From Candidatus Marinacidobacterium sp. (lineage in GTDB: Bacteria > Acidobacteriota > Vicinamibacteria > Marinacidobacterales > Marinacidobacteraceae), in NCBI GenBank assembly GCA_965220965.1, contig CBDCRI010000001.1:299303-363302 (forward strand): a stretch of DNA of 64,000 nucleotides, given 5' to 3'. Position numbers and translations under genes: made by a program. The notes beneath the pieces were generated by a model. It made no database searches and was not told where the DNA came from. It worked only from the letters and a program-made list of their open reading frames with translations. Below, one piece after another: positions 40,127 through 64,000 of the stretch. Each line of letters opens with the position of its first letter. Positions within the stretch are counted from its first letter, which is position 1.

Positions 40127-41041
40127 ATGGCGCAGCGCACCGTCAGATTGCGGCCGGATGCGGCCCGCGAGGCCATCCTCGCCCGGACCTGCCCGCCGAA
40201 CGCCGTCGTGGCCGGCGACCTGTTCCTCACCGGGGAGCCGTGGCTGACCCGGCTGCCCGAGGGCCTCAGGGTCGAGGGCCGGCTGGGGATCAGCGGCTGC
40301 CACCGCCTCGCGGGGCCCATCATCGGGCTGTCGGCGGACTCGCTGGAGATCTCCGACTGCGCCGCCCTGGTGGGCTTGATCGAGGACTCCGCGCAGGGCC
40401 TCCTCGTGCCCGGGGACCTGGTCCTGCAGGACTGCCCCGTGCTGGACCTCTTTCCCGAGGTGGCCGCCATTCGGGGCGACCTCCATGTCAGCAACTGCGG
40501 TCTGGGCTGGATGCAAATGGGCCATGGGGAGCCTTGGAAGCTCGCCGTCGGCGGCTCCGCGACGATCGAGGGGTGCGTCGGCCTCAAAAGCCTGCCGCTG
40601 CAAATGGCCGTCGGCGGCGACCTGCACATCCTGGACTGCCCGCAGCTCGGCCGCAGCAGCTGGAGGCCGTCGCCGGACGTGTCCGTCGGCGCGGCCTGCC
40701 GCATCCAGCGCTGCCACGCCCTCCGGCGATTGCCGTCCATCGCGTTCCGGGGGGAGGGCCACCTGCGCATCGCCGAATGCCACAGCCTCTCCGCCGTCTG
40801 GGAGGACGTGCGGCCGCGGGGGTCCCTGCACCTCGATGACTGCCCGCTGCTGTTGCACCTGCCCGACGGGCTCGCCTTGAGCGGCAGCCTCCATGCGACC
40901 GATTGCCCCGCGCTGGAATGGCCGGACGGCCTTGACGTCCAGGGGGAGGTCAGGGCCTTGGGCACCACCCCGCGCCGGGTGCCGCCCTCGGCAGGCCCCG
41001 CCGAAGGGCGCGGCAAGGCGCCGGCCGGCCCGGCCCCCTGA
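40127..41041 (+). CDS. Cys-rich LRR protein, paralogue 1
   Basis: AREAILARTCP N-cap; LPxxLxVxGxLxIxxCxxL repeats; box TTGCTAGAAT at 40073. Confidence 0.85.
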   Translation: MAQRTVRLRPDAAREAILARTCPPNAVVAGDLFLTGEPWLTRLPEGLRVEGRLGISGCHRLAGPIIGLSADSLEISDCAALVGLIEDSAQGLLVPGDLVLQDCPVLDLFPEVAAIRGDLHVSNCGLGWMQMGHGEPWKLAVGGSATIEGCVGLKSLPLQMAVGGDLHILDCPQLGRSSWRPSPDVSVGAACRIQRCHALRRLPSIAFRGEGHLRIAECHSLSAVWEDVRPRGSLHLDDCPLLLHLPDGLALSGSLHATDCPALEWPDGLDVQGEVRALGTTPRRVPPSAGPAEGRGKAPAGPAP

Positions 41042-41132
41042 GGGCCTGCGGCCCGGCGCCGCCCAGCCGGCCCCGCGGTTGCTAGAATCCCGCCGGGCCC
41101 CGCGCAGGGCGGGGCGGCGACGGGAGTGAGGC

Positions 41133-42029
41133 ATGGCGAACGGCACCGTCATCATGGCCCCGGAGGAGGCGAGCGAGGCGATCCTGGCCGGGACCTGCCC
41201 GGCCGGCGCCGTGGTGGCGGGCCACCTGACGCTGCACGGCGAGCCCTGGCTGGCCGAGCTGCCCAAGGGCCTTTCGGTCGAGGGGCGGCTGCGCATCGCC
41301 GGCTGCCACCGCCTCAAGCGGCTGCCCGAAGGGCTGTCGGCCCTCGGCCTGGCCGTCGAGAACTGCTGCCTCCTCGAGGGGTTCGACCACGCGGCCTCGC
41401 TGCGGTTCGAGACGCCCGGCGACCTCTCCTTCAGCAACTGCCCTTCGCTGCGGCTGCTCCCGGTTGAGGCCGCCGCCGGGGGCGACCTGACCATCAAGGA
41501 CTGCCAGCGGGCCTTCGGCCACTCGACGGGAGGGCCCGCGCTTGCGCCGCGGGCGCTCCAGGCGGGCGGCAGCGCGTTCCTCGCGGGCCTCCCCGGCCTG
41601 GTCGAGCTTCGCGGCCGCATCCGCGTCGGCGAGAGCCTGGAGATCGACGGGTGCCCGTTCCTGGCCCAGGTGGGCGGCGGCCCCGAGCGCATCCGCGTCG
41701 GCCGGGGCTGCCGGATCGCCCGCTGCCACGCCCTCAGGACCGTGGCGGGCATCGAGTTCGCAGGGGACCGGGGGGAGCTGGCCATCCGCCACTGCACGGC
41801 GCTGGAGTCCATCGGCGACGACGTCCGCCCCTCGGGCAGCCTGGCGGTCATCGGCTGCCCCTCGCTCCCGCGGCTGCCGAGCGGCCTGGCCCTGGCCGGG
41901 AGCCTGTGGGCCAACAACTGCCCCGCCCTGCGCCTGCCCGACGACCTCGAGGTGCGGGGGAGGGTCTGGCAATGGGGCGTGGACATGCGCCGGGCGGCCG
42001 CCAAGGGCGGCCCCTCGCCCTCCCCCTGA
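41133..42029 (+). CDS. Cys-rich LRR protein, paralogue 2
   Basis: Same N-cap and repeats; box TTGCTAGAAT at 41079. Confidence 0.85.
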   Translation: MANGTVIMAPEEASEAILAGTCPAGAVVAGHLTLHGEPWLAELPKGLSVEGRLRIAGCHRLKRLPEGLSALGLAVENCCLLEGFDHAASLRFETPGDLSFSNCPSLRLLPVEAAAGGDLTIKDCQRAFGHSTGGPALAPRALQAGGSAFLAGLPGLVELRGRIRVGESLEIDGCPFLAQVGGGPERIRVGRGCRIARCHALRTVAGIEFAGDRGELAIRHCTALESIGDDVRPSGSLAVIGCPSLPRLPSGLALAGSLWANNCPALRLPDDLEVRGRVWQWGVDMRRAAAKGGPSPSP

Positions 42030-42101
42030 AGCGCGCCCGGCCACGCGCTCGGCTGCCGGAATCGACGGACCCGCGCGCAACGCGGACCGGAAGGAGCGAA
42101 C

Positions 42102-43025
42102 ATGGCGAAGCGAACCGCCCGGCTGGCGCCGGCGCAGGCCCAAGAGGCCATCCTCAAGGGGGAGTGCCCGCCCGGCGCGGTGGTGGAGGGGGGCTTGGCT
42201 TTCGTCAGCGAGCCGGGGCTGGCCGAGCTGCCCAGGGACCTCACGGTGCTGGGGCCGCTGCAGGTCGACGGCTGCCACCGGCTCAAGCGGCTGCCCAAGG
42301 GGCTGTCGGCGACCGCCCTCAGCGTCCGCGAATGCGCCTCCCTCGAAGGCTTCGAGCCCGCCCCCGGAACGGCGTTCCAAGTGGACGGCGACCTGCTGTT
42401 CAGCAAGTGCCCGTCGCTGGCGCGCTTCCCGGAGGCCCTGGAGGTCGGGCGCGACCTGACCCTCAAGGACTGCCACCAAGCCTGGACCAACCCGATGGGG
42501 CTGCCCCTTTGGGTGCCGGAGCGGGTTCGGGTGGGCCGCGCCGCGGTCCTCGACGGCTGCGTCGGCCTCACCGAGCTGCCGGGCCGCATGGAGGTCGGCC
42601 TGGAGCTGCGGATCATCGGCTCCCCCTTCCTTGCCGAGATCAGGGCGGAGGAGGGTTTCGGGACGCTCACGGTCGGGACCGCCTGCCTCATCAAGCGGTG
42701 CCATGGCCTGCGCCGCGTGGCGAGCCTTTCGTTCGCGGGCGAAGGCGAGCTTGCGGTCATCGACTGCGACGCGCTGGAGGCCATCGGCGACGGCGTCCGG
42801 CCCCAAGGGCGGCTGGCGCTCATGGACTGCCCGTCGCTGGCGCGGCTGCCCAGGCGCCTCGACCTGAAGGGCAGCCTGGTGGCCGACAACTGCCCGTCGC
42901 TGGGGGCGCCGCCGGCGGGGATCCGGGCGCGGGAGGGGCTCTGGCCCTCGGGGACGACGCCGCGCTGGGCGGACGCCCCGGCGGCTGCGGCGCCGGTCGG
43001 ACGCCCCACCCGCCAGGCCCCTTGA
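42102..43025 (+). CDS. Cys-rich LRR protein, paralogue 3
   Basis: Same family; AAGGAG RBS. Confidence 0.85.
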   Translation: MAKRTARLAPAQAQEAILKGECPPGAVVEGGLAFVSEPGLAELPRDLTVLGPLQVDGCHRLKRLPKGLSATALSVRECASLEGFEPAPGTAFQVDGDLLFSKCPSLARFPEALEVGRDLTLKDCHQAWTNPMGLPLWVPERVRVGRAAVLDGCVGLTELPGRMEVGLELRIIGSPFLAEIRAEEGFGTLTVGTACLIKRCHGLRRVASLSFAGEGELAVIDCDALEAIGDGVRPQGRLALMDCPSLARLPRRLDLKGSLVADNCPSLGAPPAGIRAREGLWPSGTTPRWADAPAAAAPVGRPTRQAP

Positions 43026-43126: not shown

Positions 43127-44074
43127 ATGACGCAACCCGACCCACACGCCAGCGCCGGCCCATTCCACCCCGATGGCTTCCGGGAGGATGCGGTCCGCAC
43201 TGGCGCCATGATGTCTCCCGAGGAGGCGCACGAAGCGATCCTGAAGGGGACCTGCCCCCCCGGCGTGTCGGTGCATGGCAGCCTGGCCTTCCTCAACGAG
43301 CCCTCGCTGGCCGAGCTGCCCCGCGGCCTCGCGGTCGAGGAAGGCCTCGACATCCTGGGCTGCCACCGGCTCAGGCGCCTGCCGGCCGGCCTTTCGGCCC
43401 GTTCGGTCTCGGTCAGCCACTGCGACGCCTTCGAGGGGTTCGACGTCCACGCCTTCGACCGCTTCTTCGTGCCGGGCCACCTCGTGCTGCTCGACTGCCC
43501 CTCCCTGACCGCCTGGCCGCGGGAGCTTTACGTCGGGGGCCAGCTGCGGGTCGCGAGATGCCAGTGGGCCTGGGACAGGCCCGCGCTGCCAAGGGGGGCG
43601 GGGGCGCCGTTCAGGCTGTCGGTGGGCGGCCAAGCCGATCTCGAGGAATGCGCGGGCCTGCGCGAGCTGCCCCGGGAGGTCGAGGTGGGAACCTCGTTGA
43701 CGCTCTCCCGGTGCCCGCGGATGACGGCCCTGCCCGGGGCTCGCGGCGGGCGCCTCGTCGTGGGGGACCTCTGCGTCGTCGAGCGCTGCCACGGCCTGCG
43801 GGAGCTGTCGCGCGTCAGCTTCCGCGGGGAGGGCAAGCTGCGGGTGCGCGACTGCGCCGCGCTGGAGGTCGTCGGCGACGGGGCGAGGCCGGGCGCGACC
43901 CTGGCGCTGGCCGACTGCCCGTCGCTGTCGCGGCTGCCGAGCCCCCTGCCCCCGTCCTGCCGCCTGGCGGTCCGCAACTGCCCCAAGCTTCAGGCGGACG
44001 GCGAAGCCAAGGCGGCGCAAGGCCATGCCCGCCAGGCCGGCGCTGGGCCCCGCGCCCCGTCGCCCGCGCCATGA
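43127..44074 (+). CDS. Cys-rich LRR protein, paralogue 4
   Basis: Same family; box TTGCTAGAAT at 43055; the true start may be slightly downstream. Confidence 0.85.
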   Translation: MTQPDPHASAGPFHPDGFREDAVRTGAMMSPEEAHEAILKGTCPPGVSVHGSLAFLNEPSLAELPRGLAVEEGLDILGCHRLRRLPAGLSARSVSVSHCDAFEGFDVHAFDRFFVPGHLVLLDCPSLTAWPRELYVGGQLRVARCQWAWDRPALPRGAGAPFRLSVGGQADLEECAGLRELPREVEVGTSLTLSRCPRMTALPGARGGRLVVGDLCVVERCHGLRELSRVSFRGEGKLRVRDCAALEVVGDGARPGATLALADCPSLSRLPSPLPPSCRLAVRNCPKLQADGEAKAAQGHARQAGAGPRAPSPAP

Positions 44075-44201: not shown

Positions 44202-45134
44202 ATGGCGCAGCCAACCCTCCGAATGACCCCAACGGAGGCCCGCAGGGCCATCCTCGACGGCACCTGCCCGCCGGGCGCGACCGTCGAGGGCTCCCTGAGG
44301 ATCGAGCGGGAGCCGGGGCTGACGCGGCTGCCCGACGGGCTCTCGGTGCACGGCGGGCTGCGCATCGTCGGCTGCCACCGCCTGCGGCGGCCGATCTCCG
44401 GGCTGTCCGCGCAGTCGATCGAGGTCAGGTCGTGCAGCGCCTTCGAGGGCTTCGACGGCGGCAGGGACGGGGCGCTGCGCGTGCCAGGGCGCTTCGACCT
44501 GTTCGACTGCCCCTCCCTTGCCCGCCTCCCGCGGGCGCTTCACGTCGAGTTCGGGCTGTGGATCGAGCGCTGCCCATGGGGGTGGGCGAGCGCGCCCGGT
44601 TGGCTCCCGCGGGCGCCGCAGCGGCTCGAGGTGGTCGGGCCGGCCCTCTTCGCGGACTGCCCCGGCCTTGCCAGGCTGCCGAAGGCGATGGAGGTCGGCG
44701 GGGGCTTGACGGTGCGGCGATGCCCGCACCTTCGGGCCGTGGGGGGGCTGGACGCCGACGTGCGCCTGCGCATCCGGGGCGACTGCGTCATAGAGCAGTG
44801 CCATGGCCTGCGGGAGGTGGATTTCGTCGACTTCTGGCCGGGCGGCGACCTGCGCGTCACCGACTGCGCGGCGCTGGAGCGGATCGGCGACGAAGCGCGG
44901 CCGCAGCGCTGCCTCGTCGTCCGCGAGTGCCCGTCGCTGTCTCGGCTGCCCAGGCGCCTGTTCCTCGACGGCGACCTGGTGGCCCACGACTGCCCCTCGC
45001 TGAAGGAGAGGCCGCAGATCACCGTGCTGGGCGACATCCTCCCAACCGGCGCGACGCCCCGCTGGGAGGCCCCGCCGACGGCCGCCGAAGCGGCGCGCGG
45101 GCCAAGGCGCCGCGCCCCTTCGCCCGGAGCCTGA
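44202..45134 (+). CDS. Cys-rich LRR protein, paralogue 5
   Basis: MAQPTLRMTPTEARRAILDGTCP. Confidence 0.85.
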   Translation: MAQPTLRMTPTEARRAILDGTCPPGATVEGSLRIEREPGLTRLPDGLSVHGGLRIVGCHRLRRPISGLSAQSIEVRSCSAFEGFDGGRDGALRVPGRFDLFDCPSLARLPRALHVEFGLWIERCPWGWASAPGWLPRAPQRLEVVGPALFADCPGLARLPKAMEVGGGLTVRRCPHLRAVGGLDADVRLRIRGDCVIEQCHGLREVDFVDFWPGGDLRVTDCAALERIGDEARPQRCLVVRECPSLSRLPRRLFLDGDLVAHDCPSLKERPQITVLGDILPTGATPRWEAPPTAAEAARGPRRRAPSPGA

Positions 45135-45262: not shown

Positions 45263-46192
45263 ATGGCGCAGTCACGCATCCGAATGGGGCCGACGGCCGC
45301 CCGCAAGGCCATCCTCGACGGCACCTGGCCGCCGGGCGCCGTGGTCGAGGGCGACCTGCGCCTCGATCGGGAGCCGGGACTGGCGGAGCTGCCCGACGGG
45401 CTGGCGGTGGAGGGCGAGCTGCGCATCGACCGCTGCCACCGGCTGGCGCGGCTGCCGAAGCGGCTGGCCGCCCAGGGGGTCCGCATCACGACCTGCGACG
45501 CCTTCCAAGGGCTCGGCCCCGGCGAGGCCGCCTTCTGCGTGCCCGGCGACCTCAACCTGATTGACTGCCCGGCCCTGGCCCACTTCCCAGGGGAGCTGGT
45601 CGTGGGGGGCGACCTGCGCATGGGGGAGTGCCCAAGGGCCTGGTCGGACCCGAGCCGGTCGGGCCAGGGCGCTCCGGAGCGGCTCATCGTGGGCGGGTCG
45701 GTGGCGATCGAGGAGTGCGCCGGCCTCGCCGGGCTGCCCCACGAGATCGACGTCGGCGGGGACCTGAACGTCGCGCGCTGCCCGAAACTGGTCGCGGTCG
45801 GCGGCGGGCCCGGCGCCCGGATCGCCGTCGGCGAGGGGCGCATGGTCCACATCGAGCGCTGCAACGGCCTGTGGCTCGTAGCGTCCATCGAGTGGCGCGG
45901 CGGCGGCACTCTGCGGATCACGGACTGCGCCGCGCTGGAGCGCATCGCCGACGGCGTGCTCCCGCAGTGGAGCCTGACGGTCCACAACTGCCACTCGCTG
46001 ACGCGGCTGCCGAGCCGCCTTGTCCTTGACGGCGACCTGGTGGCCCACGACTGCCCCTCGCTGAGGACCGTGCACCCCCCGGACGTGAACGGCAACATCA
46101 TGCCTACCGGCACCACGCCCCGCTGGGAGGTGCTGCCGACGCCCGCGGAGGCGCCCTATTCGCGGCGCCGCGGCCCGTCGCCTTCTCCCTGA
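45263..46192 (+). CDS. Cys-rich LRR protein, paralogue 6
   Basis: MAQSRIRMGPTAARKAILDG; box TTGCTAAAAT at 45213. Confidence 0.85.
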   Translation: MAQSRIRMGPTAARKAILDGTWPPGAVVEGDLRLDREPGLAELPDGLAVEGELRIDRCHRLARLPKRLAAQGVRITTCDAFQGLGPGEAAFCVPGDLNLIDCPALAHFPGELVVGGDLRMGECPRAWSDPSRSGQGAPERLIVGGSVAIEECAGLAGLPHEIDVGGDLNVARCPKLVAVGGGPGARIAVGEGRMVHIERCNGLWLVASIEWRGGGTLRITDCAALERIADGVLPQWSLTVHNCHSLTRLPSRLVLDGDLVAHDCPSLRTVHPPDVNGNIMPTGTTPRWEVLPTPAEAPYSRRRGPSPSP

Positions 46193-46226: not shown

Positions 46227-47147
46227 ATGGCCAAGGGAGCCATTCGAATGACCGGCGAGGAGGCGCGCGAGGCCATCCTCAAGGGGGAGTGCCCGCCCGG
46301 CACGACCGTCCGGGGCAGCCTGGCCTTCCGCCGGGAGCCGTGGCTCACCCAGCTGCCCCGAGGCCTGACCGTGGAGGGAACCCTGTCCATCGTCGAGTGC
46401 CACCAGATGCACTCGCTGCCGAGCAACCTAGCGGCGGAGGGGCTCACGATCTCCAACTGCGCCCAGATGCAAAGCCTGGGACGCGTCAACCGACCGCCCC
46501 TGCACCTCCCGGAGGGCCTGCTTCTGCAGGGCTGCCCCGCCTTGGCCGAGCTTCCCGACGACGTCGCCGTCGGGGGCGACCTGCACATCCAGGACTGCCC
46601 GTGGCTCTGGCCGGGGCCGCGCGTCGGGCGACCGCGCTCCGTGCATCTCATCGGGCCGCGGCGGCTGTCGGTGGAGGGATCCGCGACGCTGCGCGAGTGC
46701 GCGGGCCTCTACAGCCTGCCGGACCGCATGGCGGTGGGCGGCGCGCTGACGATAGCCGACTGCCCTGGGCTCTCCGGCATCGGCGGCCCGGACGGCGAGG
46801 CCGGCCTCGCCGTCGGCGGCGCCTGCCTCATCGAGCGCTGCCACGGCCTGCACGAGGTGAGCGGCATCGCCTTCGGAGGCGGCGGCCTGCTGCGCGTCGA
46901 CGACTTCAGCGGGCTGGAGGCGCTCGGCGACGGCGTGCGCCCGCCGCGCCGCCTGGAGGTGCGCGGCTGCCCGTCGCTGGTCCGGCTGCCGCGCCGCCTC
47001 GCGCTCGAGGGCGCCTTGGTGGCACACGACTGCCCGTTGCTCGAGGCCCCCGACGGGGCCGTCGCGCGCGGCGGCGTCCGGGCAACCGGCAGCACCCCGC
47101 GCTGGGAGGCCGCGCCCGATCGGCGCGCGCCCTCCCCCTCGCCCTGA
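46227..47147 (+). CDS. Cys-rich LRR protein, paralogue 7
   Basis: MAKGAIRMTGEEAREAILKGECP. Confidence 0.85.
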   Translation: MAKGAIRMTGEEAREAILKGECPPGTTVRGSLAFRREPWLTQLPRGLTVEGTLSIVECHQMHSLPSNLAAEGLTISNCAQMQSLGRVNRPPLHLPEGLLLQGCPALAELPDDVAVGGDLHIQDCPWLWPGPRVGRPRSVHLIGPRRLSVEGSATLRECAGLYSLPDRMAVGGALTIADCPGLSGIGGPDGEAGLAVGGACLIERCHGLHEVSGIAFGGGGLLRVDDFSGLEALGDGVRPPRRLEVRGCPSLVRLPRRLALEGALVAHDCPLLEAPDGAVARGGVRATGSTPRWEAAPDRRAPSPSP

Positions 47148-47159: not shown

Positions 47160-48209
47160 ATGCTGGGCGTGGACCTGTTCGCCGGCGCCGGGGGGCTGTC
47201 CGCGGGCGCCCGGGCGGCGGGCGTGCGCATCGCCGTCGCGGTCGAGTCGGACCCGCGCGCCGCCGACGCCTACCGCCTCAACCACCCCGAGGCGGACCTG
47301 CGGGTCATGGACGTCAGGCGGCTGCCCGACCCGGCGCCCATTGCCACCTCCCAGCCCACGGTCCTGCTCGGCGGGCCGCCGTGCCAGGCGTTCTCCTCCT
47401 CCAACCAGAGGTCCCGAAGCCTGGGCAATCCGGCGAACCGCCTCTACGTAGAGATGCTGCGCGTGGCGCGGGCCATGCGGCCAACCCACGTCGTCATCGA
47501 GAACGTCCGGGGGTTCGTCGAGGCCCAAGGCGGGCTGTTCCTCAGCGACGCCCTGAAGCGGCTTCGCGAGCTCGGCTACCACGTCGCCCACGGCATGCTC
47601 GACGCCGCCGACTTCGGCGTGCCGCAGCACCGGCGGCGCCTGTTCATCGTCGGCTCCCGGGGACGCCCGCCGAGGCTGCCCCGGCCCGTCGGCGGGCCGC
47701 GGACGACGGTGGCCGACGCGCTGCTCGACCTGCCCGTGCTGGAAAACGGCGCCGCCCTGCCCCTGGCCCGCTACCGGCGGGCGCCCCACTCCGCCTACGC
47801 CCGGCGCCTGCGCGGGGACGGCGCCGCGTGCACCGGCCATCTCGTCACCCGCAACGCGCCCCACATCGTGGAGCGGTACCGGCACGTGCCGCCGGGCGGC
47901 AACTGGCGGGCGATCCCGGCCCGGCTCATGGCGGGCTACGCGGACCGCACGCGCTGCCACGAGGGCCTCTACCGCCGGCTGCGCTGGGACGCGCCCTCGG
48001 TGGTGCTCAACAACTTCAGGAAGAACATGCTGATCCACCCCTGGGCGCAGCGCGGCCTGTCGGTGCGCGAGGCGGCGCGGCTGCAGTCGTTTCCCGACGC
48101 CCACGCCTTCGCCGGGAGCATCGGCTTCCAGCAGCAGCAGGTGGCCGACGCCGTGCCGCCGCTCATGGCGCGGGCGGTGCTGGAGAGCGTCCTGCAGGGC
48201 GCGGGCTAG
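47160..48209 (+). CDS. C5 DNA cytosine methyltransferase, no adjacent restriction endonuclease seen
   Basis: DLFAGAGG, GGPPCQAFS, IENV, PQHRRRLFIVG and REAARLQSFPD. Confidence 0.93.
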   Translation: MLGVDLFAGAGGLSAGARAAGVRIAVAVESDPRAADAYRLNHPEADLRVMDVRRLPDPAPIATSQPTVLLGGPPCQAFSSSNQRSRSLGNPANRLYVEMLRVARAMRPTHVVIENVRGFVEAQGGLFLSDALKRLRELGYHVAHGMLDAADFGVPQHRRRLFIVGSRGRPPRLPRPVGGPRTTVADALLDLPVLENGAALPLARYRRAPHSAYARRLRGDGAACTGHLVTRNAPHIVERYRHVPPGGNWRAIPARLMAGYADRTRCHEGLYRRLRWDAPSVVLNNFRKNMLIHPWAQRGLSVREAARLQSFPDAHAFAGSIGFQQQQVADAVPPLMARAVLESVLQGAG

Positions 48210-48271: not shown

Positions 48272-49035
48272 ATGGCGACATCCGGGACCCGCATGACCCC
48301 GGACGAGGCCCGCGAGGCCATCCTCGGCGGCGCCTGCCCCGACGGCGCCCAGTCCGCGAGGCCGGCCCGATCCGCCTGCCCGCCGGCCTCACGGTGGAGG
48401 GCGGCCTGCACGCCAACGAGTGCCCGGGGCTCAGGCACCTGCCGCGGGGGCTGTCGGCGGCGTCGGTGGCCGTCGAGGCCTGCGCGGCCTTCGAGGGCTT
48501 CGATCCCGAGTTCGAGGGGGCCTTCCGCGTGCCCGGGAACGCCCACTTCCTCGCGTGCCACGCCCTGGCCCGGTTCCCGGAGGAGGTCGCGGTCGGGGGA
48601 CACTTCGACCTCACGCGCTGCGCGCGCGCCTGGGCGGGGCCGTCCGGGACGCCGAGAAGGCTCACGGCGGGAGGCAGGGCGGTCCTCACCGGATGCGCGG
48701 GGCTCAGCGAGCTGCCGGAGGAGATGGCGGTCGGCCAGGCCCTGCTGCTGATCAAGTGCCCGAGCCTGCGCAGCGTGCCCCATGGCGAGGGGGCGGGCGC
48801 CCCCCGCGCGGGCGCCTACGCCGGCATCTTCCGCTGCGACGGCCTGGAGCGCGTTGACGGGATCTCGTTCGAGCCGGGCGGCGTCCTGGAGGTGGTGGGC
48901 TGCCGCAGGCTCAGGTCCATCGGCGACGGCGCGCGGCCGGAACGGCTGTCCGTGGAGGGCTGCCCGCTGCTGGAGCGGCTGCCGCAGCGGCCGGCCTCCC
49001 GCCCCGCCTCCCGCAAAGGCCCGCCGTTGCCCTGA
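48272..49035 (+). pseudogene. LRR paralogue 8, frameshifted by a deletion near 48350
   Basis: MATSGTRMTPDEAREAILGGACPDGA in one frame; the LRR body continues in another (48394-49035). Confidence 0.75.
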
Positions 49036-49301
49036 TCACGCAACCGGGGGCACGGCCTCGACCGGGAGGGAGTCCGGCGAACGCCCAGGCCGCCGCTCGT
49101 TCCGGGCGGCCAATGCCGATTCATCGCCAGCCGTTCACAGCCCTCGGGCAAAGCCGCCCCAATCCCCGACCCGCGGGAATTCGGGGTGCCTGCCAACCCA
49201 TTCGCCCCGCACCGCCAGGACCTGGAAGGGAAACCGGGTCCAGTGCTATGGTCCAAGCCGGCTTCAGGGATGCGCGCAGCGCAGCGAACCGAGACTCGAA
49301 C

Positions 49302-51504: not shown

Positions 51505-51511
51505 TTGGGCG

Positions 51512-52404: not shown

Positions 52405-52461
52405 ATCGTCAGTGGCTGGCGGCGTGGATCTTGTTTCGCATGTTGCGGGAGGGCGAAAGGG

Positions 52462-52760: not shown

Positions 52761-52906
52761 CTGGCTCAAGGCCGAAGCGGGAGGCAGGCAAGCGCGCGTG
52801 CGGGCGCGGCCTCACTCCAGCGCCTTGCCCGCGCCCAAGCGGCGCGCCGTTGCTTAAATCAAGCCGGACCGGGGCGCACCGCCCCCCCCCCCCACGGAGA
52901 GGACGC

Positions 52907-55722: not shown

Positions 55723-56637
55723 ATGAAGCGCATGGAGACGGCGATCGAACTGACGCGGGGGGTGCGCGAGGCCATCCTGAGGGGGGCGTGCCCGCAGGGC
55801 GCGGCCGTGGCCGGCGACCTCGTGCTCGAGGGCGAGGCCGCATTGACGGAGCTGCCGAGGGCGCTCACGGTCCATGGGACGCTGCGCATCGCCGGCTGCC
55901 ACCGGCTCAGGCGCCTGCCTGTCGGCCTGGCGGCGGACAGCATCCACATCGAGAACTGCGCCGTCCTTGAGGGGGTGGCCCCAGCCACCGGGGCGGAACT
56001 GCGCGTGCGGCGGGACCTGACGTTCAGCCGATGCCCCTCCCTTGCGCGCTTCCCGGACCAGATCACGGTGGGCGGCAGCCTGTCCATCGCGGACTGCCCG
56101 CAGGCGTGGGCGCAGCCGAACGGGCAACCCGGAGGGCCGCCCTACGGCCTCAAGGCGGGCGGGGACGTGTCCCTGCAACGCTGCGCGGCCCTGCGGCACC
56201 TGCCGACGCGCATGCTCGTCGGCGGCTCCCTCAACATCGCCGAGTGCCACTCGCTGAGCAGCGTTGGCGAGGCATGGCTCGGCGCCGCGCCCATGCCCGA
56301 GGTCGGCGCCGTCTGGATCACGAGCTGCCACGGCCTGCGTCGCGTCGGCGGGCTGGCGTTTGCGCAGGACGGGGAGCTTGACGTCGAGGACTGCGTCGCC
56401 CTGGAGGCCGTGGCGGACGACGTGGGGCCCCTGCACACCCTCGCCCTCAAGGGCTGCCCGTCGCTCAAGCGCCTGCCCCGCGGGCTGCCGCCCGACGGCT
56501 GGCTCTCGGCCCGCGACTGCCCGCTCCTCGAGCCGCCGCCGGAGCCTGCGGTCCGGGCCGCCTTGGAGACGTCGGGCACCACGCCGCGCTGGGCGCCGGC
56601 CAGCGCCGGGCGCCGGCCCCGGCCACCCTCCCCCTGA
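55723..56637 (+). CDS. Cys-rich LRR protein, paralogue 13 (closest to 12)
   Basis: Shares RRDLxFxxCPSLARFPD, GGPP and DGWLSARDCP with paralogue 12. Confidence 0.85.
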   Translation: MKRMETAIELTRGVREAILRGACPQGAAVAGDLVLEGEAALTELPRALTVHGTLRIAGCHRLRRLPVGLAADSIHIENCAVLEGVAPATGAELRVRRDLTFSRCPSLARFPDQITVGGSLSIADCPQAWAQPNGQPGGPPYGLKAGGDVSLQRCAALRHLPTRMLVGGSLNIAECHSLSSVGEAWLGAAPMPEVGAVWITSCHGLRRVGGLAFAQDGELDVEDCVALEAVADDVGPLHTLALKGCPSLKRLPRGLPPDGWLSARDCPLLEPPPEPAVRAALETSGTTPRWAPASAGRRPRPPSP

Positions 56638-56767: not shown

Positions 56768-57205
56768 ATGGCCAGCGCCACGACCCTGACGACGCCAGAG
56801 GCGGCGCGCGACGCCATCCAGAGCGGCGCCTGCCCGGAGGGCGCCGTGGCCGACGGCGACCACCGGTTCGCCGAGGCGCCGGGCCCTACCGAGCTGCCCA
56901 GGGGGCTGGCGGTTCGCGGCGAGATGCTGGCCTGGGGCTGCCATCGGTTCAGGCGGCTGCCGCAGGGGCTGTCCGCCGAATCGCCCGTCATTGACGACTG
57001 CGCCCTCTTCGAGGGGATCGCGGCGGACTTCGGGGGCGCCGTCGAGGCGGGCGGCGACACATGCTTCCGCAACTGCGGGTCGCTGGCCCGCTTCCCGACG
57101 CCGATGTCCGTCGGCGCGCGCTTCTCCCTGGTCCTGCGCCCAGTGGCCTGGGGCGGCCCCAACGCGCCGGCCGCAAGGCGCGCCGGCGGTGCGGCCTCCG
57201 CATGA
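56768..57205 (+). pseudogene. LRR paralogue 14, truncated and degenerate
   Basis: EAARDAIQSGACPEGA with eroded repeats, 145 aa; box TTGCTTTAAT at 56715. Confidence 0.7.
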
Positions 57206-58601: not shown

Positions 58602-59864
58602 ATGGCGAAAGACCCCATCATCCTGACTCCGGAGGAGGCCCGCCGGGCCATTCTCAACGGCGCGTTCCCCGAGGGCGCCAGCGTAGAGGGCGACCTGTTC
58701 CTCGTGGACCGCATGGAGCTGGCCGAGCTGCCCGACGGCCTGCAGGTGCAGGGGATGCTGCGCGTCGCCCGCTGCCACCGGCTCCGCCGCCTGCCGAGGG
58801 GGCTGAGGGCCGCGTCGGTCTCCATCGAGGACTGCGCCGGGTTCGAGGGCTTCCCGGCCGACTGCCGGTCCTTCGAGGTCGAGATGAGCCTGCACTTCAG
58901 CGGATGCCCGGCGCTGCAGGCCTTCCCCGAGCGCCTTTCCGTCGGCGGCGACTTCGCCCTCACCGACTGCCCCAGGGCCTGGGACGGGGCGGACGGCGGG
59001 ATGCCGGGGCGCCTCTCGGCGGGCGGCTGCGCGTTCATCCTGGCGTGCGACCGCCTGACCGGGCTGCCGGCGGCCACCGCCGTGCGCGAAAAGCTCGAAC
59101 TGGCCGACTGCAACCGCCTGCGGCAGCTGCCTGCGCGGCTGTCAGCGGGCGGGCTGTCCGTGGAGCACTGCGCGTCCTTCGAGGGCTTCCACCCCGACGA
59201 CTGCTCCCGCAAGGGCCGGCAGCCGGCCTTCACCGTGCCGGGCGGCCTCCATTTCCAGGACTGCCCCGCCCTGGAGCGCTTCCCGAAGGCGCTCCACGTG
59301 GGCGGGGCATTCCGCATGGCGCGCTGCGCGCGGGCCTGGGCGGAAGCCGGACCTGGCGCGGGACCGCCGGAGGAGCTGCGCGTCGGCAAGTGGGCCCATT
59401 TGGAGAAATGCGTCGGGCTGGCGCGGCTCCCGAGGCGGATGGAGGTCGGGATGAACCTGGTGCTCCGGCGCTGCCACCTGATCGAGCGCATCGGCGGCGC
59501 GGGCGCAGGCCGCCCGCCCGTGGTGGGCGGCCACTGCACGGTCGATAGGTGCGACGGGCTCAGCGGCGTGGACGCCCTGGCCTTCACGGGGGAGGGTTCG
59601 CTCGACATCACCGAATGCCGGTCCCTGGAGGCCGTCGGGGACGGCGTGCGTCCCGAAAGCGAGATGGCCGTCGCGCAGTGCCCGCGGCTGTCGCGGCTGC
59701 CCCGCCGCCTCGTGCTGGCCGGAGTCCTGACCCTGGCCGACTGCCCGTCGCTTGCGCAGGCGGTGACTGTGGAGGGCGGCGGGCGTCTGGCCACGTCCGG
59801 CTCGACCCCCTGGCAGTCCGGGCTGCCGGCCCCCGGGCGCAGCGCGGGCCCGCCGGCCCCTTGA
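58602..59864 (+). CDS. Cys-rich LRR protein, paralogue 15 (long form)
   Basis: MAKDPIILTPEEARRAILNG; box TTGCTTCAAT at 58555. Confidence 0.85.
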   Translation: MAKDPIILTPEEARRAILNGAFPEGASVEGDLFLVDRMELAELPDGLQVQGMLRVARCHRLRRLPRGLRAASVSIEDCAGFEGFPADCRSFEVEMSLHFSGCPALQAFPERLSVGGDFALTDCPRAWDGADGGMPGRLSAGGCAFILACDRLTGLPAATAVREKLELADCNRLRQLPARLSAGGLSVEHCASFEGFHPDDCSRKGRQPAFTVPGGLHFQDCPALERFPKALHVGGAFRMARCARAWAEAGPGAGPPEELRVGKWAHLEKCVGLARLPRRMEVGMNLVLRRCHLIERIGGAGAGRPPVVGGHCTVDRCDGLSGVDALAFTGEGSLDITECRSLEAVGDGVRPESEMAVAQCPRLSRLPRRLVLAGVLTLADCPSLAQAVTVEGGGRLATSGSTPWQSGLPAPGRSAGPPAP

Positions 59865-59928: not shown

Positions 59929-61101
59929 ATGTCCAAGAAAAACGCCCGAATGACGGTCGAGGATGCGCGCAAGGCCATCCTGGAGGGCGGCTGCCCGGAG
60001 TTTGCCGAAGTCGACGGCGACCTGTGGCTCCGGGCCGCGCCCTCGCTCGACCGGCTGCCCGTGGGCCTCAAGGTCCGGGGGAGCTTGTGGATCACCGGGT
60101 GCGACCGGCTCGAGCGGCTGCCGCATGGATTGGAGGCGGAGTCCCTCTTCGTCAAGGACTGCGCCGTCCTGGAGGGCTTCGCGGAGCGGCGGCGCTTCCG
60201 CGTGCCGGGGGGCCTGACATTCGAGGACTGCCCGGGCCTGCGCACCTTCCCGAAGCGCCTGGAGGTCGGCGGAGACCTGGGGATTGAGGGCTGCCCGCAG
60301 GCGTGGTCCGCCACCGGGCGCGCGCCGAAAAGCCTCGACGTCAGCGGCAGGGCCCACATTGGCCGGTGCGCCGGCCTGGCGCGGCTGCCGGCGGACACGG
60401 CGGTCTGGAGTGCTCTTTCTGTGTTCGGGTGCGACCGCCTCCTGCGGCTGCCGGAGCGGCTGTCGGTCGGGTCGCTGCACATCGTGGACTGCGCCGCCTT
60501 GCGGGGGTTCCACCCCGGCTACCAGGCCCGCGGCTTCCAGGTCCGCGGGGCGCTCTCCTTCGACGGCTGCCCCGCCCTGTCGGACTTTCCCGCCTGGCTG
60601 TCGGCGGGCTGGACGTTCACCATGCAGCGCTGCGAGCGGGCGTTTGGGCCGCCGGACCCGGCGCGCGGCAGCCACCCTCCGAAGGGCCTTTATGTGGGCC
60701 GATGCGCCACGATCAGGCTGTGCCCGTCGATGTCCCGGCTGCCGCAACGGGTGGAGGTCGGCACGACGCTGCGCATCGCGGAGTGCGATGGCCTGACTGG
60801 CGTTGGGGGCGGCGGGAAGGCCGAAGCCCCGGAGGTGGGCCATGGCTGCACGCTGCTTGGGTGCGCAGGCCTGCAACGCGTGGACGGCATCGCGTTCAGG
60901 AGCCCAGCCTGGCTGGAGGTCAAGCGCTGCCCTGAGCTGCAAGCCATCGGGGACGGGGTCGGCCCCCTCGACCGGCTGGATGTGGAGGGCTGCCCCGCCC
61001 TTGTTCGGACGCCGGCGGCGGGCGGGGGCGCAAGGGCATTGGCATCGAAGGACCAAGGGTCCGCGCCCGATGCCCGGCGGGCCGGCGCGCCCTCGCCCTA
61101 G
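59929..61101 (+). CDS. Cys-rich LRR protein, paralogue 16 (long form)
   Basis: MSKKNARMTVEDARKAILEGGCP. Confidence 0.85.
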   Translation: MSKKNARMTVEDARKAILEGGCPEFAEVDGDLWLRAAPSLDRLPVGLKVRGSLWITGCDRLERLPHGLEAESLFVKDCAVLEGFAERRRFRVPGGLTFEDCPGLRTFPKRLEVGGDLGIEGCPQAWSATGRAPKSLDVSGRAHIGRCAGLARLPADTAVWSALSVFGCDRLLRLPERLSVGSLHIVDCAALRGFHPGYQARGFQVRGALSFDGCPALSDFPAWLSAGWTFTMQRCERAFGPPDPARGSHPPKGLYVGRCATIRLCPSMSRLPQRVEVGTTLRIAECDGLTGVGGGGKAEAPEVGHGCTLLGCAGLQRVDGIAFRSPAWLEVKRCPELQAIGDGVGPLDRLDVEGCPALVRTPAAGGGARALASKDQGSAPDARRAGAPSP

Positions 61102-61172: not shown

Positions 61173-62477
61173 ATGGCGAAGGGAAGCACCGAAGTGACGG
61201 CCGGCGAGGCGCGCAATGCCATCCACGAGGGGCGCTGCCCCGAGGGCGCCGAAGTCTGGGGCGACTTGGACCTTTTGGACGCGTCCTGGCTTGTCCGGCT
61301 GCCCAAGGGCCTCAAGGTCAAGGGGAGTTTGAGGATCACCGGGTGCCACCGGCTCGAGTGGCTGCCGGAGGGCCTGGAGGCGGACTGCCTCCAGGTCTCC
61401 AACTGCGCGTCGCTGCGGGGCTTCGCGGATTGGCGGCGCTTCCGCACGCCGGGCGACCTGACGTTCCTCGGCTGCCCCCTGCTGCACGCCTTCCCGGAGC
61501 GCCTCGAGGTCGGGGGCAACCTGCTGATGCAAGCCTGCCACCGGGCGTGGTCGCGTTGGACGGGCATGCCGGCCTCCCTCGACGTGGCGGGGTTGGCGAC
61601 CTTCGAAGACTGCGCGGGACTGGAGCTGCTGCCGGCGGACACGCGCGTGGGCCGCCGGCTCAAGGCGTCGGGCTGCGACCACCTCCAGCGGCTGCCGGAG
61701 CGGCTGTCGGCAGGGGAGCTGGCCGTCGTGGACTGCGCCGCGTTCGCGGGCTTCCACATGGACATGGACGGCCCGGACCAGGCGTTCCATGTGGACGGCG
61801 ATCTCGACTTCGCCGACTGCTCCGGCCTGAGGGTCTTTCCGATGGAGATATCGGTCGGCGGGGACTTCCGGATGCGGAACTGCCCGCGGGCCTGGCACCG
61901 GGAGCGCGGCACCCACCCGCCGGCCACCCTGCGGGTGCGCGGCTCGGCATTGATCGACGCCTGCTCCGGCCTGACCGCGCTGCCCGAACGGATCGAGGTC
62001 GGCGAGACGCTGAGCCTCTCCGCGTGCCACGGCCTGGAGGCCTTGCGCCTCCCGCCAGAGCCCGGCCGCGGCAGCCTGGAGGTGGGGCGTTGCGTCGACA
62101 TTGACAGCTGCCACGGGCTGCGGCGCATCGACGACATCGGGTTCAGGGACGTCGGCAGGCTGGAGGTCCTCCATTGCGACCTGCTCGAGGCCATCGGCTT
62201 CCCCGCTGGCACCTTGTCCAAGGCGCGGGTCATGGACTGCCCGGCGCTGTCGGAGCTGACCGGCCGGATCTCCCTGGAGGGCGACCTGACCCTGCACGAC
62301 TGCCCGCTGCTCGTCCAGGCGGTCGCGGTCGAAGGGGGCGGGCGCGTGGTCAGGTCGGGCTCCACCCCCGCCCAGCCCGCGGCGCCGGCCCCCCGGCCGC
62401 GGCGGCGCGGCGCCCTCCCCCTGACCCCGGCCGGCGCGCCCGAAGGCGCGCGCCCAGTCCGCCCGCGCTTGCTTTAA
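61173..62477 (+). CDS. Cys-rich LRR protein, paralogue 17 (tail frameshifted)
   Basis: Close to paralogue 18; reads past the homologous ccctccccctga stop at 62422-62424. Confidence 0.85.
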   Translation: MAKGSTEVTAGEARNAIHEGRCPEGAEVWGDLDLLDASWLVRLPKGLKVKGSLRITGCHRLEWLPEGLEADCLQVSNCASLRGFADWRRFRTPGDLTFLGCPLLHAFPERLEVGGNLLMQACHRAWSRWTGMPASLDVAGLATFEDCAGLELLPADTRVGRRLKASGCDHLQRLPERLSAGELAVVDCAAFAGFHMDMDGPDQAFHVDGDLDFADCSGLRVFPMEISVGGDFRMRNCPRAWHRERGTHPPATLRVRGSALIDACSGLTALPERIEVGETLSLSACHGLEALRLPPEPGRGSLEVGRCVDIDSCHGLRRIDDIGFRDVGRLEVLHCDLLEAIGFPAGTLSKARVMDCPALSELTGRISLEGDLTLHDCPLLVQAVAVEGGGRVVRSGSTPAQPAAPAPRPRRRGALPLTPAGAPEGARPVRPRLL

Positions 62478-62507
62478 TCGGGCAACCGAACCCGCACGGA
62501 GGCCGCC

Positions 62508-63755
62508 ATGGCCCGCAAGACCCCCCGAATGACGGCCGGCGAGGCGCGCAATGCCATCCAGGAGGGGCGTTGCCCCGAGGGCGCCGAAGTCTGGGGCGAC
62601 CTGGTCCTTTTTCACGCGTCCTGGCTTGTCCGGCTGCCCAAGGGCCTCAAGGTCAAGGGGAGCTTGTCGATCCACGGGAGCGACCGGCTCGAGCGCCTGC
62701 CGGAGGGCCTGGAGGCGGACTCCCTCGTCGTCTCCAACTGCGCTTCGCTGGCGGGCTTCGCGGAGTCCTGCCGGAGCTTCCGCACGCCGGGCGACCTGAC
62801 GCTCCTCGGCTGCCCCCTGCTGCACGCCTTCCCGGAGCGCCTCGAGGTCGGGGGCGACCTCCGGCTGGAACGCTGCCCGTTGGCGTGGTCGGCTTGGTCG
62901 GGCGTGCCGGCCTCGCTCGACGTAACGGGGGCGGCGACCTTCGAAGACTGCGCGGGACTGGAGCTGCTGCCGGCGGACACGCGCGTGGGCCACTGGTTCA
63001 AGGCAGTGCACTGCGACCGCCTCCTGCGGCTGCCGGAGCGGCTGTCGGCAGGGGCGTTGGCCGTCGAGGACTGCGCCGCGTTCGCGGGCTTCGACATGGA
63101 CTGCCGGGACCGGGCGTTCCATGTCCAGGGCGATGTCGTCTTCAACGACTGCCCCGGCCTGAAGCTCTTTCCGGGGGAGCTGTCGGTTGGCGGGGATTTC
63201 CGGATGCGGCGCTGCGCGCGGGCCTGGCACCGGGAGCGAGGCAGCCACCCGCCGGAAACCCTGCGGGTGCGCGGCTCGGCATCCATCGACGCCTGCGCCG
63301 GCCTGACCGCGCTGCCTGAATGGATCGAGGTCGGCGGGACGCTGAGGCTCTCCGAGTGCCACGGCTTGGAGGCCTTGGGCCTCCCGCCAGCGCCCGGGCG
63401 CGGCAGCCTGGAGGTGGGGCAATGCGTTAACATTGGCAGCTGCCACGGGCTGCGGCGCATCGACGACATCACGTTCAGGGGCGTCGGCTTCCTGTCGGTC
63501 GACCATTGCAACCGGCTCGAGGCCATCAGCGCCCCCGCAGGCACCCTGTACCGGGCCTTCGTTACGCACTGCCTGAGGCTTTCGGAGCTGACCGGCCAGC
63601 TCGCCCTGGAGGACGACCTGACCCTGGACGACTGCCCTCTGCTCCTCCATGAGGTCGCGGTCGAAGGGTGCGGGCGCGTGGTCAGGTCGGGATCCACCCC
63701 CGCGCAGCCCGCGGCACCGGCCCCCAGCCGCGGCGCCAAGGCGCCCTCCCCCTGA
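62508..63755 (+). CDS. Cys-rich LRR protein, paralogue 18
   Basis: Recent duplicate of 17; box TTGCTTTAAT at 62469. Confidence 0.85.
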   Translation: MARKTPRMTAGEARNAIQEGRCPEGAEVWGDLVLFHASWLVRLPKGLKVKGSLSIHGSDRLERLPEGLEADSLVVSNCASLAGFAESCRSFRTPGDLTLLGCPLLHAFPERLEVGGDLRLERCPLAWSAWSGVPASLDVTGAATFEDCAGLELLPADTRVGHWFKAVHCDRLLRLPERLSAGALAVEDCAAFAGFDMDCRDRAFHVQGDVVFNDCPGLKLFPGELSVGGDFRMRRCARAWHRERGSHPPETLRVRGSASIDACAGLTALPEWIEVGGTLRLSECHGLEALGLPPAPGRGSLEVGQCVNIGSCHGLRRIDDITFRGVGFLSVDHCNRLEAISAPAGTLYRAFVTHCLRLSELTGQLALEDDLTLDDCPLLLHEVAVEGCGRVVRSGSTPAQPAAPAPSRGAKAPSP

Positions 63756-63838
63756 CCCCGCCCGGCGCGCCGGAAGGCTCGCGCCCAGTCCGCCCGCGCT
63801 TGCTTTAATCGGGCAACCGAACCCGCAGGGAGGCCGCC

Positions 63839-64000
63839 ATGGCCCGCAAGACCCCCCGAATGACGGCCGCGGAGGCGCACCACGCCATCTTGGACGGCCG
63901 TTGCCCCGAGGGCGCCGAGGTCGACGGCGACCTGCACTTCCACTTCAAGCCGTCGCTGGCGGAGCTGCCCAAGGGCCTCAAGGTCCGGGGCCACTTGGCC
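63839..64000 (+). CDS. Cys-rich LRR protein, paralogue 19 (cut by the window end)
   Basis: MARKTPRMTAAEAHHAILDGRCPEGAEVDGDL; upstream region nearly identical to that of 18. Confidence 0.8.
   Translation, partial: MARKTPRMTAAEAHHAILDGRCPEGAEVDGDLHFHFKPSLAELPKGLKVRGHLA

Follow-up and report, generated by a model that had tools for sequence, protein, structure and literature searches.

A tandem array of diversified leucine-rich repeat genes on a conjugative-type megaplasmid of Candidatus Marinacidobacterium sp.: a candidate repertoire of protein binders with a shared C-terminal tail

Families of binding proteins built of leucine-rich repeats (LRRs) alone are known from effector-injecting pathogens and symbionts. 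The DNA analysed here, a stretch of 64,000 nucleotides referred to as the window, raises the question of what such a family does on a replicon of Candidatus Marinacidobacterium sp. The window is the final 64 kb (C2:299303-363302) of the 363,302-bp contig CBDCRI010000001.1, hereafter C2; the second contig of this two-contig, 94% complete genome, of 2.88 Mb, is the chromosome. From position 40127 to its end the window carries a tandem array of co-oriented, cysteine-rich LRR genes, in which the initial annotation had seen a library of binders borne on a mobile element. The array is probably a repertoire of protein binders, and we tentatively read it as one whose members are translocated, by means of a shared C-terminal tail, through the type IV secretion system (T4SS) of C2.

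A profile hidden Markov model (HMM) built from eight copies of the family matches the + strand only, at window positions 40154-64000, and its matches resume at C2:2-8031, past the circular junction. The two ends of C2 share a 19-bp overlap (window 63982-64000 = C2:1-19), and gene g15 reads in frame through it; C2 is therefore a circular replicon of 363 kb, and the array spans the junction. C2 is plasmid-like and carries conjugation genes, which agrees with the mobile carrier proposed initially. The whole array comprises 20 intact co-oriented genes (g01-g20) and six decayed copies in ~32 kb. Twenty of these loci fall within the window, namely 14 intact genes (g01-g14), one gene cut by its end (g15, starting at 63839) and five decayed copies; five further intact genes (g16-g20, C2:1180-8034) and one fragment lie beyond it, within C2:1-8034. 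The initial count of ~19 paralogues thus described a genuine tandem array and fell short of its extent, 26 copies across the junction. The 20 intact proteins fall into sizes of 288-310 residues (nine), 368 residues (one) and 390-448 residues (ten), the long forms having arisen by internal duplication of HMM positions ~45-167. A distant paralogue of 535 residues (C2:239791-241398) has the same N-cap and tail and a further C-terminal region of ~250 residues of unknown kind, and a profile search of the contigs of the genome found no family copy on the 2.88-Mb chromosome. The array loci of the window, with genes inserted among them, are listed below in window coordinates.

40073..40083, +, first TTGCTnnAATC box, a putative promoter element (motif search)
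40127..41041, +, g01, LRR-only, 304 aa (HMM, 295.8 bits; gene model)
41133..42029, +, g02, 298 aa (HMM; gene model)
42102..43025, +, g03, 307 aa (HMM; gene model)
43208..44074, +, g04, 288 aa (HMM; gene model)
44202..45134, +, g05, 310 aa (HMM; gene model)
45263..46192, +, g06, 309 aa (HMM; gene model)
46227..47147, +, g07, 306 aa (HMM; gene model)
47160..48209, +, C5 cytosine DNA methyltransferase gene inserted in the array (Pfam DNA_methylase, 2.9e-53; PADLOC MTase_II, 3.7e-96)
48290..48990, +, decayed copy, truncated, with a frameshift between the N-cap and HMM positions 33-245 (HMM)
49113..50648, +, HipA-like kinase gene inserted in the array (Pfam HipA_C, 1.3e-19)
50916..51134, +, decayed copy, HMM positions 1-73 only (HMM)
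52456..52848, +, decayed copy with an internal deletion, HMM positions 89-155 and 225-290 (HMM)
52907..54013, +, g08, 368 aa, with three extra repeats (HMM; gene model)
54069..54779, +, truncated copy, HMM positions 1-210 (HMM)
54763..55668, +, g09, 301 aa, the copy used for the structure model (AlphaFold2)
55732..56637, +, g10, 301 aa (HMM; gene model)
56792..57166, +, decayed copy, HMM positions 2-126 (HMM)
58602..59864, +, g11, long form, 420 aa (HMM; gene model)
59929..61101, +, g12, long form, 390 aa (HMM; gene model)
61173..62477, +, g13, long form, 434 aa, C-terminal tail frame-shifted (gene model)
62508..63755, +, g14, long form, 415 aa (gene model)
63839..64000, +, g15, 5' part only, continuing in frame over the C2 junction (19-bp overlap; gene model)

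The proteins share an N-cap, repeats of ~21 residues (L-x-V-x-G-x-L-x-I-x-x-C-x-x-L-x-x-L-P, with one buried cysteine each) and a GxTPRW C-cap, and their cysteine content is 3.6-5.1%. The loop after CPxAW is proline-rich and varies in both length and sequence; all four versions of it quoted in the initial annotation were recovered. An AlphaFold2 model of g09, based on a 21-sequence alignment (predicted local distance difference test, pLDDT, 88.7; predicted template modelling score, pTM, 0.86), begins with a helix at the N-terminus and continues as a beta-solenoid in which each 21-residue repeat contributes two short strands. The top rows of a Foldseek search with this model were all LRR proteins, with weak scores (E >= 3e-3), and an exhaustive VIA structure search returned the LRR domain of RPP1 (Z 15.8), SlrP (Z 14.4), XopL (4fcg, Z 14.0) and YopM (Z 13.3), right-handed beta-helices being interleaved at Z 13-14.7. 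Because beta-helices score among the LRR proteins, the fold by itself indicates a solenoid, and the LRR assignment is owed to the repeat motif and the sequence relatives; with these taken together, the array proteins are, as modelled, LRR-type beta-solenoids. Among solved small LRRs of the type, the closest is 8z5u_0, a 180-residue 'leucine-rich repeat protein' of a polar flagellar motor, which superposes on the g09 model with a root-mean-square deviation of 2.8 A over 174 residues at 23% identity.

Variation is concentrated on one face of this solenoid. The per-column entropy peaks at 2.5, 3.0 and 2.9 bits for positions -6, -4 and -2, respectively, relative to the repeat cysteine, against 0.1-1.3 bits at scaffold positions, and these three peaks are the residues of each repeat's main strand that face outwards. 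Structure and entropy together uphold the view that a conserved LRR-type scaffold carries variation focused on its exposed strand face. In a hydropathy scan none of the 20 array proteins showed a hydrophobic segment at its N-terminus or one of transmembrane-like character; to the extent of that scan, the proteins lack a signal peptide, as had been stated.

The array bears the marks of birth and death of gene copies. The six decayed copies are frameshifted, truncated or internally deleted, and four of them adjoin inserted genes foreign to the family (the C5 methyltransferase, the HipA-like kinase and unknown ORFs). Most pairs of proteins are 37-52% identical, with higher values among g13-g16 (68-79%, or ~85% as DNA), for g09/g10 (60%) and for g17/g18 (56%). 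Array neighbours average 51.8% identity against 43.4% for random pairs, a difference reached in none of 10,000 permutations, so that growth was by local tandem duplication. Duplicates are therefore present as claimed, and their supposed recency is only moderate, judging by the identities of g13-g16 and g09/g10; a self-comparison of the DNA shows just three tracts of >=85% identity, all within the g13-g16/g19 part. Diversity-generating retroelement targeting was considered and rejected, since no RVT_1 reverse transcriptase was found in the genome and the self-comparison revealed no template repeat beyond paralogue-level repeats. Contigs of three other public sequencing runs, from separate studies, contain low-depth pieces identical to the array at window 40001-60000, which indicates that the same strain is present in other samples; among the contigs of four runs there were identical pieces only and no variant array, and the joints listed in those contigs, with sides of 20-44 letters, were taken as repeat noise.

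Each copy appears equipped for its own expression. All 20 intact genes have an ATG 21 nt before the conserved Met-Thr start, with a GGAGG-type Shine-Dalgarno sequence upstream, and most array starts are preceded at ~25-50 nt by the AT-rich box TTGCTnnAATC, which is predicted to be a promoter of the extended -10 type. Exact boxes in the array part of the window lie at 40073, 41079, 43055, 45213, 52850, 58555, 62469 and 63800, and boxes with one mismatch at 54030 and 56715. With at most one mismatch the box occurs 19 times in the window, where 5.5 occurrences are expected, and none of 100 shuffles reached 19. Across the genome the exact box is found 12 times in the array (always on the + strand), six times elsewhere on C2 and once on the 2.88-Mb chromosome, where it precedes a gene that we take, from its first codons, to encode ribosomal protein L21. 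Boxes outside the array include those at window 20847 and 34665. C2 encodes a sigma-70-family protein of its own (C2:116043-117137), which might read these boxes; with 18 of the 19 exact copies on C2, the box and this factor may define a plasmid-specific regulon.

Selection has acted to preserve these genes. Nei-Gojobori (NG86) estimates of dN/dS are about 1 (0.66-1.27) and were set aside as biased by a GC content at third codon positions (GC3) of about 92-95%; the GY94-F3x4 codon model was fitted by likelihood instead, to six independent pairs, with kappa fixed at 2 and site classes predefined from the repeat motif. Whole-gene omega is then 0.23-0.50 in all six pairs, with twice the log-likelihood difference from omega = 1 at 9.9-80.7, and scaffold sites alone give 0.11-0.23. 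As omega is significantly below 1, the array genes are functional and under purifying selection overall. Exposed-face omega in the two youngest pairs is 0.84 (n = 45 codons) and 1.14 (n = 39 codons), neither distinguishable from 1, and the older pairs are saturated in the codon fit. The exposed sites are near-neutral and positive selection is neither demonstrated nor excluded; the surface-focused diversifying selection foreseen by the initial annotation has therefore not been demonstrated. The genes do have expression signals of their own, in the individual starts and Shine-Dalgarno sequences, and are under purifying selection. Scaffold residues, starts, Shine-Dalgarno sequences, boxes and the terminal motif described below are all kept at ~40% protein identity.

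Relatives of the family are few at full length and numerous as LRR domains in other architectures. In Pfam scans of six array proteins no LRR family reached its threshold (the best, LRR_EndoS, scored 11.7 bits against 27.9), and NEL (PF14496), DUF6745 (PF20530), NB-ARC and TIR were absent; no NB-ARC, NACHT or other STAND NTPase was found in the array proteins or neighbours scanned. Genome-wide searches for NEL and DUF6745 gave no match either, with controls that were equally silent. NCBIfam gave weak matches to the LRRs of XopL and XopAE only, the best (XopL, NF041351) at 28.3 bits (7e-7) against a cut-off of 500, and no PADLOC model matched the two array proteins and the distant paralogue scanned. 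A word-based search of 5.8 billion proteins yielded two matches beyond this genome: P0007, a relative at full length, and an LRR+DUF6745 protein. An exhaustive profile search of 1.84 billion representatives gave 9,913 matches at E <= 1e-3, with the short full-length form outside this genome confined to P0007, which has no close relatives, and P0020. Pfam was run on 112 of the 150 best profile matches, a set that omits most of the genome's own copies and fragments and most proteins longer than 1,100 residues: 36 carry NEL, 21 DUF6745, five a C-terminal DnaJ domain, two PcfJ, and one each YbaB and DUF4256.

The LRR+DUF6745 proteins are the nearest in architecture. Two of them, P0008 and P0090, begin with the array N-cap at their very N-terminus, the profile aligning from position 1-2, and continue in the same repeat; unlike them, the array proteins end in GxTPRW and the tail and lack DUF6745. 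This domain has no known function and is mentioned in no paper of the open-access literature searched; a model of a whole LRR+DUF6745 protein (pLDDT 83.5) matched LRR proteins only, and the DUF6745 fold could not be separated. The likeness to plant nucleotide-binding LRR (NLR) receptors that had been suggested holds for the fold (RPP1 at the top, at 16% identity) and for the surface-focused variation, but not for the sequence: the array proteins have no NB-ARC or TIR domain, and the profile finds bacterial NEL and DUF6745 proteins first.

Searches of genomes and plasmids place the remaining relatives far away. The family was found in none of 40 relatives, and of 400 genomes sampled from the phylum, in each of which few candidates were scored, seven had only weak partial matches of <=57 bits. 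The best 80 loci listed in a RecA search are at most 73% identical and belong to many phyla, and a search for WhiB found none. A tblastn search of 72,556 plasmids led to two megaplasmids of Acetobacter, 526 and 471 kb in size, matched at 26-29% identity; the profile has 28 and 25 matches on them, lying in many small LRR-only ORFs, all annotated as hypothetical. Their genes are partly grouped, in one place as a trio and in another behind an integrase gene: on the Acetobacter persici megaplasmid (NZ_CP014688.1:24126-29170) a site-specific integrase gene precedes a mini-array of four hypothetical genes in one orientation, of which three or four match the LRR profile. On plasmid pAC1084_1 an LRR gene lies ~4 kb from repA. 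The HMM search proposed initially thus shows the full-length form almost only here, with distant, multicopy LRR-only relatives in Acetobacter. A tblastn search of g09 against phages and a megablast search of window 28000-40000 against plasmids gave no match, and none of 163 matches in a single-protein pattern search was a relative. Look-alikes in an atlas at low recognition (1720) comprise LRR, DUF6745 and some viral clusters and are treated as leads only. The statement that no named system has this layout stands across Pfam, NCBIfam, PADLOC and the open-access literature searched.

The feature that ties the array to the rest of C2 is its C-terminus. A basic stretch and a terminal P-[SA]-P close sixteen of the 20 array proteins, and in two others the tail is frame-shifted. 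Over the last 25 residues the net charge averages +2.3, compared with 0.0 in 1,330 chromosomal ORFs (p ~2e-5), and the last 20 residues of the g09 model have pLDDT values of 52-60. The distant paralogue and P0007 carry the motif; P0020 has only a looser S-P-S ending. Among ORFs of >=100 residues selected by composition (GC3 > 0.85, and GC3 > GC1 > GC2 over the three codon positions), the strict ending occurs in six of 1,330 on the chromosome, 21 of 169 outside the array on C2, or ~1 in 8, and 14 of 23 in the array; for C2 outside the array against the chromosome the Fisher odds ratio is 31 (p 6e-16). ORFs with a final proline number 61 of 169 on C2 and 117 of 1,330 on the chromosome. The motif is encoded by 22 codon combinations and followed by both TGA and TAG stops, so that it is conserved at the protein level. 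Fifteen of 20 other C2 proteins that carry it have no Pfam match; the rest are a RecQ-like helicase, proteins with DUF3085, AbiEii and HD_4, and the distant LRR paralogue. Examples of tagged ORFs outside the array are those at window 15438-16061 (-), window 37691-38377 (+) and C2:125798-127417 (-).

The tail recurs in part on the Acetobacter plasmids, of which 93 kb were sampled. A strict P-[STA]-P ending is present in four of ten reachable family ORFs, or six of ten with P-[ST]-L included. Under a looser rule, for ORFs of >=150 residues in four plasmid loci, a proline-type ending is found in 15 of 86 ORFs and in nine of the 77 outside the family. On pMPPla107, a megaplasmid with a transfer system typed MPF_I, the looser rule finds none in 69 ORFs over the 81 kb sampled, and tblastn of plasmids detects no LRR relative there. 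A general trait of MPF_I systems was ruled out as an explanation of the tail, since it is absent from 25 annotated coding sequences as well as those 69 ORFs of pMPPla107. A PDZ+M48 metallopeptidase (window 9660-11018, -) was likewise rejected as a cytoplasmic reader of the tail, since it bears a signal of the lipoprotein type and the Acetobacter plasmids lack it.

C2 has, to judge by its gene content, a conjugative-type T4SS. Pfam matches at C2:80-140 kb include a coupling protein (TrwB_AAD_bind, TraG-D_C), a T2SSE/VirB11-class ATPase, a weak match to TrbC/VirB2, thioredoxin/DsbA-like proteins, single-stranded DNA-binding protein, and Toprim, ParM-like and sigma-70-like proteins. A neighbouring protein of 1,016 residues is a VirB4-class ATPase that matches 3,780 plasmids, 3,219 of them typed as conjugative. 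Coupling proteins encoded by ~1-Mb megaplasmids of Pseudomonas and Vibrio share 45-50% identity with that of C2; on pMPPla107, one of these megaplasmids, the local gene order is the same as on C2. An absence of the T4SS suggested by searches with PF03135 and PF02534 was discarded as a false negative, the coupling protein and the ATPases being present.

On these grounds we propose that each copy would bind a different protein target through its variable face, while the disordered, basic tail ending in P-S/A-P-COOH would serve all copies as a common handle. The tail would be a recognition signal that couples proteins to a machine of the megaplasmid, most likely its T4SS, and among the plasmid proteins that would be co-transferred to target cells, whether bacterial recipients or eukaryotes, the array would form the largest family. 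There its members could bind, neutralise or redirect proteins, for example the defence proteins of a recipient during plasmid establishment. This account of a plasmid-borne repertoire of binders, translocated through the T4SS by means of the tail, is put forward tentatively; it is preferred because conjugative systems move many plasmid proteins and charged C-terminal signals are known. Excerpts of two reports describe the co-transfer of many plasmid-encoded proteins by conjugative T4SSs and translocation signals that can be C-terminal and positively charged (PMC11288057, PMC8406263). Two marks of T4SS substrates are found here, a T4SS on the same element and a basic C-terminus that is disordered in the model. 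The resemblance extends to the 'conjutome' of conjugative plasmids, plasmid-encoded proteins co-transferred according to PMC11288057, as the array proteins of C2 would be. It also extends to the Beps of Bartonella, which form paralogous arrays by duplication next to or on a T4SS-bearing element and have a charged C-terminal signal; unlike those Fic-OB-BID proteins, the array proteins have no BID domain, and their signal motif differs.

Several observations weigh against this account. The tail does not track this type of T4SS, being absent from the ORFs sampled on pMPPla107, the plasmid with the closest coupling protein. The coupling protein of C2 is only ~25% identical to the Acetobacter one, and the Acetobacter tails are acidic, not basic. 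The tail counts rest on a crude, uncurated ORF filter. Nothing marks the tagged RecQ-like, AbiEii and HD-domain proteins, or the 15 of 20 without a Pfam match, as effectors, and the defence genes around the array (Fic, AbiEii, GajB-like, C5 methyltransferase, HipA and Csc2) also fit an intracellular defence role. A stronger form of the proposal, in which the tail would be a dedicated, sequence-defined sorting or translocation signal of a class of Acetobacter-type megaplasmids that marks at least 35 'cargo' proteins of C2, and the array would be the binder arsenal of that cargo, delivered to recipient bacteria with each member neutralising a different defence or host factor, seems unlikely; if true, it would make the array the plasmid-side counterpart of an immune receptor repertoire.

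The absence of the tail from pMPPla107 and the defence-island setting make a repertoire for intracellular defence or immunity nearly as likely as T4SS transfer. The array proteins would then remain in the cytoplasm of the cell that holds the plasmid, either as a homogeneous polyimmunity array of LRR inhibitors of a diversified family of incoming toxins or as sensors or inhibitors of phage proteins, with the tail coupling them to a shared downstream partner. The setting is seen in the stretch of the window upstream of the array (1-39925), which is rich in predicted defence genes; these are listed here, followed by two other loci of C2:

window 4-3132, GajB-like UvrD helicase
window 12295-13278, -, RlaP-like protein
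window 20944-21954, type I-D Csc2
window 28392-29213, -, AbiEii
window 38693..39925, +, Fic family gene, DUF4172+Fic, SoFic-like (Pfam DUF4172, 1.2e-21, and Fic, 2e-15; PADLOC SoFic, 1.2e-34)
C2:8192-11779, -, ankyrin-repeat protein of 1,195 aa, convergent with the array and right after its last gene
C2:125798-127417, -, RecQ-like helicase, tagged (Pfam)

The SoFic-like gene is a neighbour of the array, directly 5' of g01. Together with AbiEii, the GajB-like helicase, Csc2 and the interspersed MTase_II and HipA_C genes, it speaks for defence, as do the Acetobacter LRR homologues, which adjoin type I-E CRISPR-Cas, RES, HipA, Fic and methyltransferase genes. C2 and the Acetobacter loci share RepA, which adjoins an LRR gene in both, as well as Fic, RNR, RNB, HipA and a coupling-protein-like gene; the best-conserved protein shared by C2 and the A. 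persici megaplasmid in the loci compared is a second Fic protein of 546 residues (C2:184.2-185.9 kb, -), 49% identical over 504 residues. On C2, ParA is encoded at C2:19133-19819 and the RepA-like gene lies at ~C2:237.8-239.1 kb, adjoining the distant LRR paralogue. The GC content is 71-76% in the array region of the window, and it is 56-65% at window 16-28 kb, with flanks at 70-75%.

A defence role also suits proteins that have no export signals, a cysteine-rich scaffold fit for the reducing cytoplasm and variation concentrated on a binding face. It has a precedent in the Imm-LRR proteins, described in excerpts of Zhang et al. 2012 (PMC3482391) as intracellular inhibitors encoded in multi-gene, polyimmunity loci; these are signal-peptide-less LRR proteins like those of the array. 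Compared by that description, Imm-LRR genes differ in lying in heterogeneous loci beside type V secretion system (T5SS) toxins, and no toxin partner was found here. The genome has no RHS_repeat, and the neighbours scanned contain no polymorphic-toxin domain, only the toxin-antitoxin types AbiEii and HipA_C, families of contact-dependent inhibition (CDI) and T5SS toxins not having been specifically searched; orphan immunity arrays do without a linked toxin. The lack of a PADLOC match for the proteins scanned and of any NTPase or effector domain fused to or visibly paired with them also tells against defence, as does the fusion of the nearest LRR relatives to effector-like NEL or J-domains, and the presence of the tail on unrelated C2 proteins would be left unexplained.

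Less probable than either, and well down the scale, is a set of YopM-like LRR-only effectors aimed at a eukaryotic host or grazer; they would be scaffolding proteins that reach the eukaryotic cytosol by a Dot/Icm-related (MPF_I-like) system of the plasmid or by uptake, and would diversify in an arms race with proteins of the host. The LRR class is shared with NEL ligases and, in the five of 112 matches noted above, with J-domain fusions, and SlrP, XopL and YopM are among the structural matches. The ankyrin-repeat protein directly downstream of the array (repeats at residues ~465-545, with DARPin-like matches down to 1e-20; the remainder is without a match) points the same way. The NEL effectors (IpaH/SspH/SlrP-type) and YopM resemble the array in a short repeat with Leu-Pro near its end and in being diversified families of binders present in multiple copies; YopM is an example of a functional LRR-only protein, and entry into cells without a type III secretion system (T3SS) is known for some LPX effectors, as stated in excerpts of PMC9320238. 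The array proteins differ from these effectors in the cysteine at the LRR asparagine position, the two strands per repeat, the distinct N-cap, the C-cap with its P-S/A-P tail and the tandem arrangement on a megaplasmid, and none of the six scanned has a NEL domain. XopL and XopAE, type III effectors of Xanthomonas, are the only named models that match at all, at 28 bits against 500, and the array proteins have neither their XL-box ligase domain nor a T3SS to serve.

Tandem arrays of LRR paralogues with birth and death and purifying selection are also described, in part of the text of PMC4209131, for the NEX1 and PEX1 families of the amoeba-associated Parachlamydiaceae. Members of those families, by the same text, contain F-box, BTB or U-box domains and serve as T3SS substrates in bacteria that are obligately intracellular, whereas the array is LRR-only and plasmid-borne. 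The export routes are what this explanation lacks: FHIPEP (SctV/FlhA), the T3SS and flagellar export gate, was not found in the 94%-complete genome (the control was found in four of 14 genomes), nor did marker searches of the genome find TssC of the T6SS (type VI secretion system) sheath or a contractile sheath. Furthermore, the closest architecture, with the N-cap at the N-terminus, is that of the LRR+DUF6745 proteins of unknown role, and the other tagged proteins resemble nucleic-acid enzymes of bacterial type.

Rather improbable, too, is a repertoire of adaptors, in which the LRR would capture varied proteins and the tail would dock on an AAA+ protease or chaperone, after the manner of tethering adaptors and F-box-LRR receptors. 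The combination of a variable binder, a disordered linker (the low-pLDDT last 20 residues) and an invariant terminal peptide is what such a role would call for, and the cysteine-containing LRR register recalls that of F-box-LRR receptors. The reading is purely architectural, however, no candidate docking partner was identified, and the sole nearby PDZ protein, the PDZ+M48 metallopeptidase, is the exported one set aside above. A functionless, selfishly amplified or decaying family, which the six decayed copies of 26, the two frame-shifted tails, the low cost of keeping long ORFs in 75% GC DNA and the naive NG86 dN/dS of ~1 might suggest, is very improbable in view of the codon-bias-aware omega, significantly below 1 in all six pairs, and of the scaffold, starts, Shine-Dalgarno sequences, boxes and terminal motif kept at ~40% identity.

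In the open-access literature searched we found no description of an array on a conjugative-type megaplasmid that has 26 copies, is deeply diverged and is still under selection. More surprising still is the C-terminal motif that runs through the replicon: it is 31-fold enriched relative to the cell's own chromosome, and distant Acetobacter megaplasmids have it too. Should the array be a library for intracellular defence or immunity, it would represent a new LRR-based branch of prokaryotic immunity. Should the motif act as a signal for sorting or translocation, the cargo of a megaplasmid would be predictable from sequence, and the motif would give a handle on what such plasmids deliver to their hosts or do within them, and on the roles of many 'hypothetical' genes.

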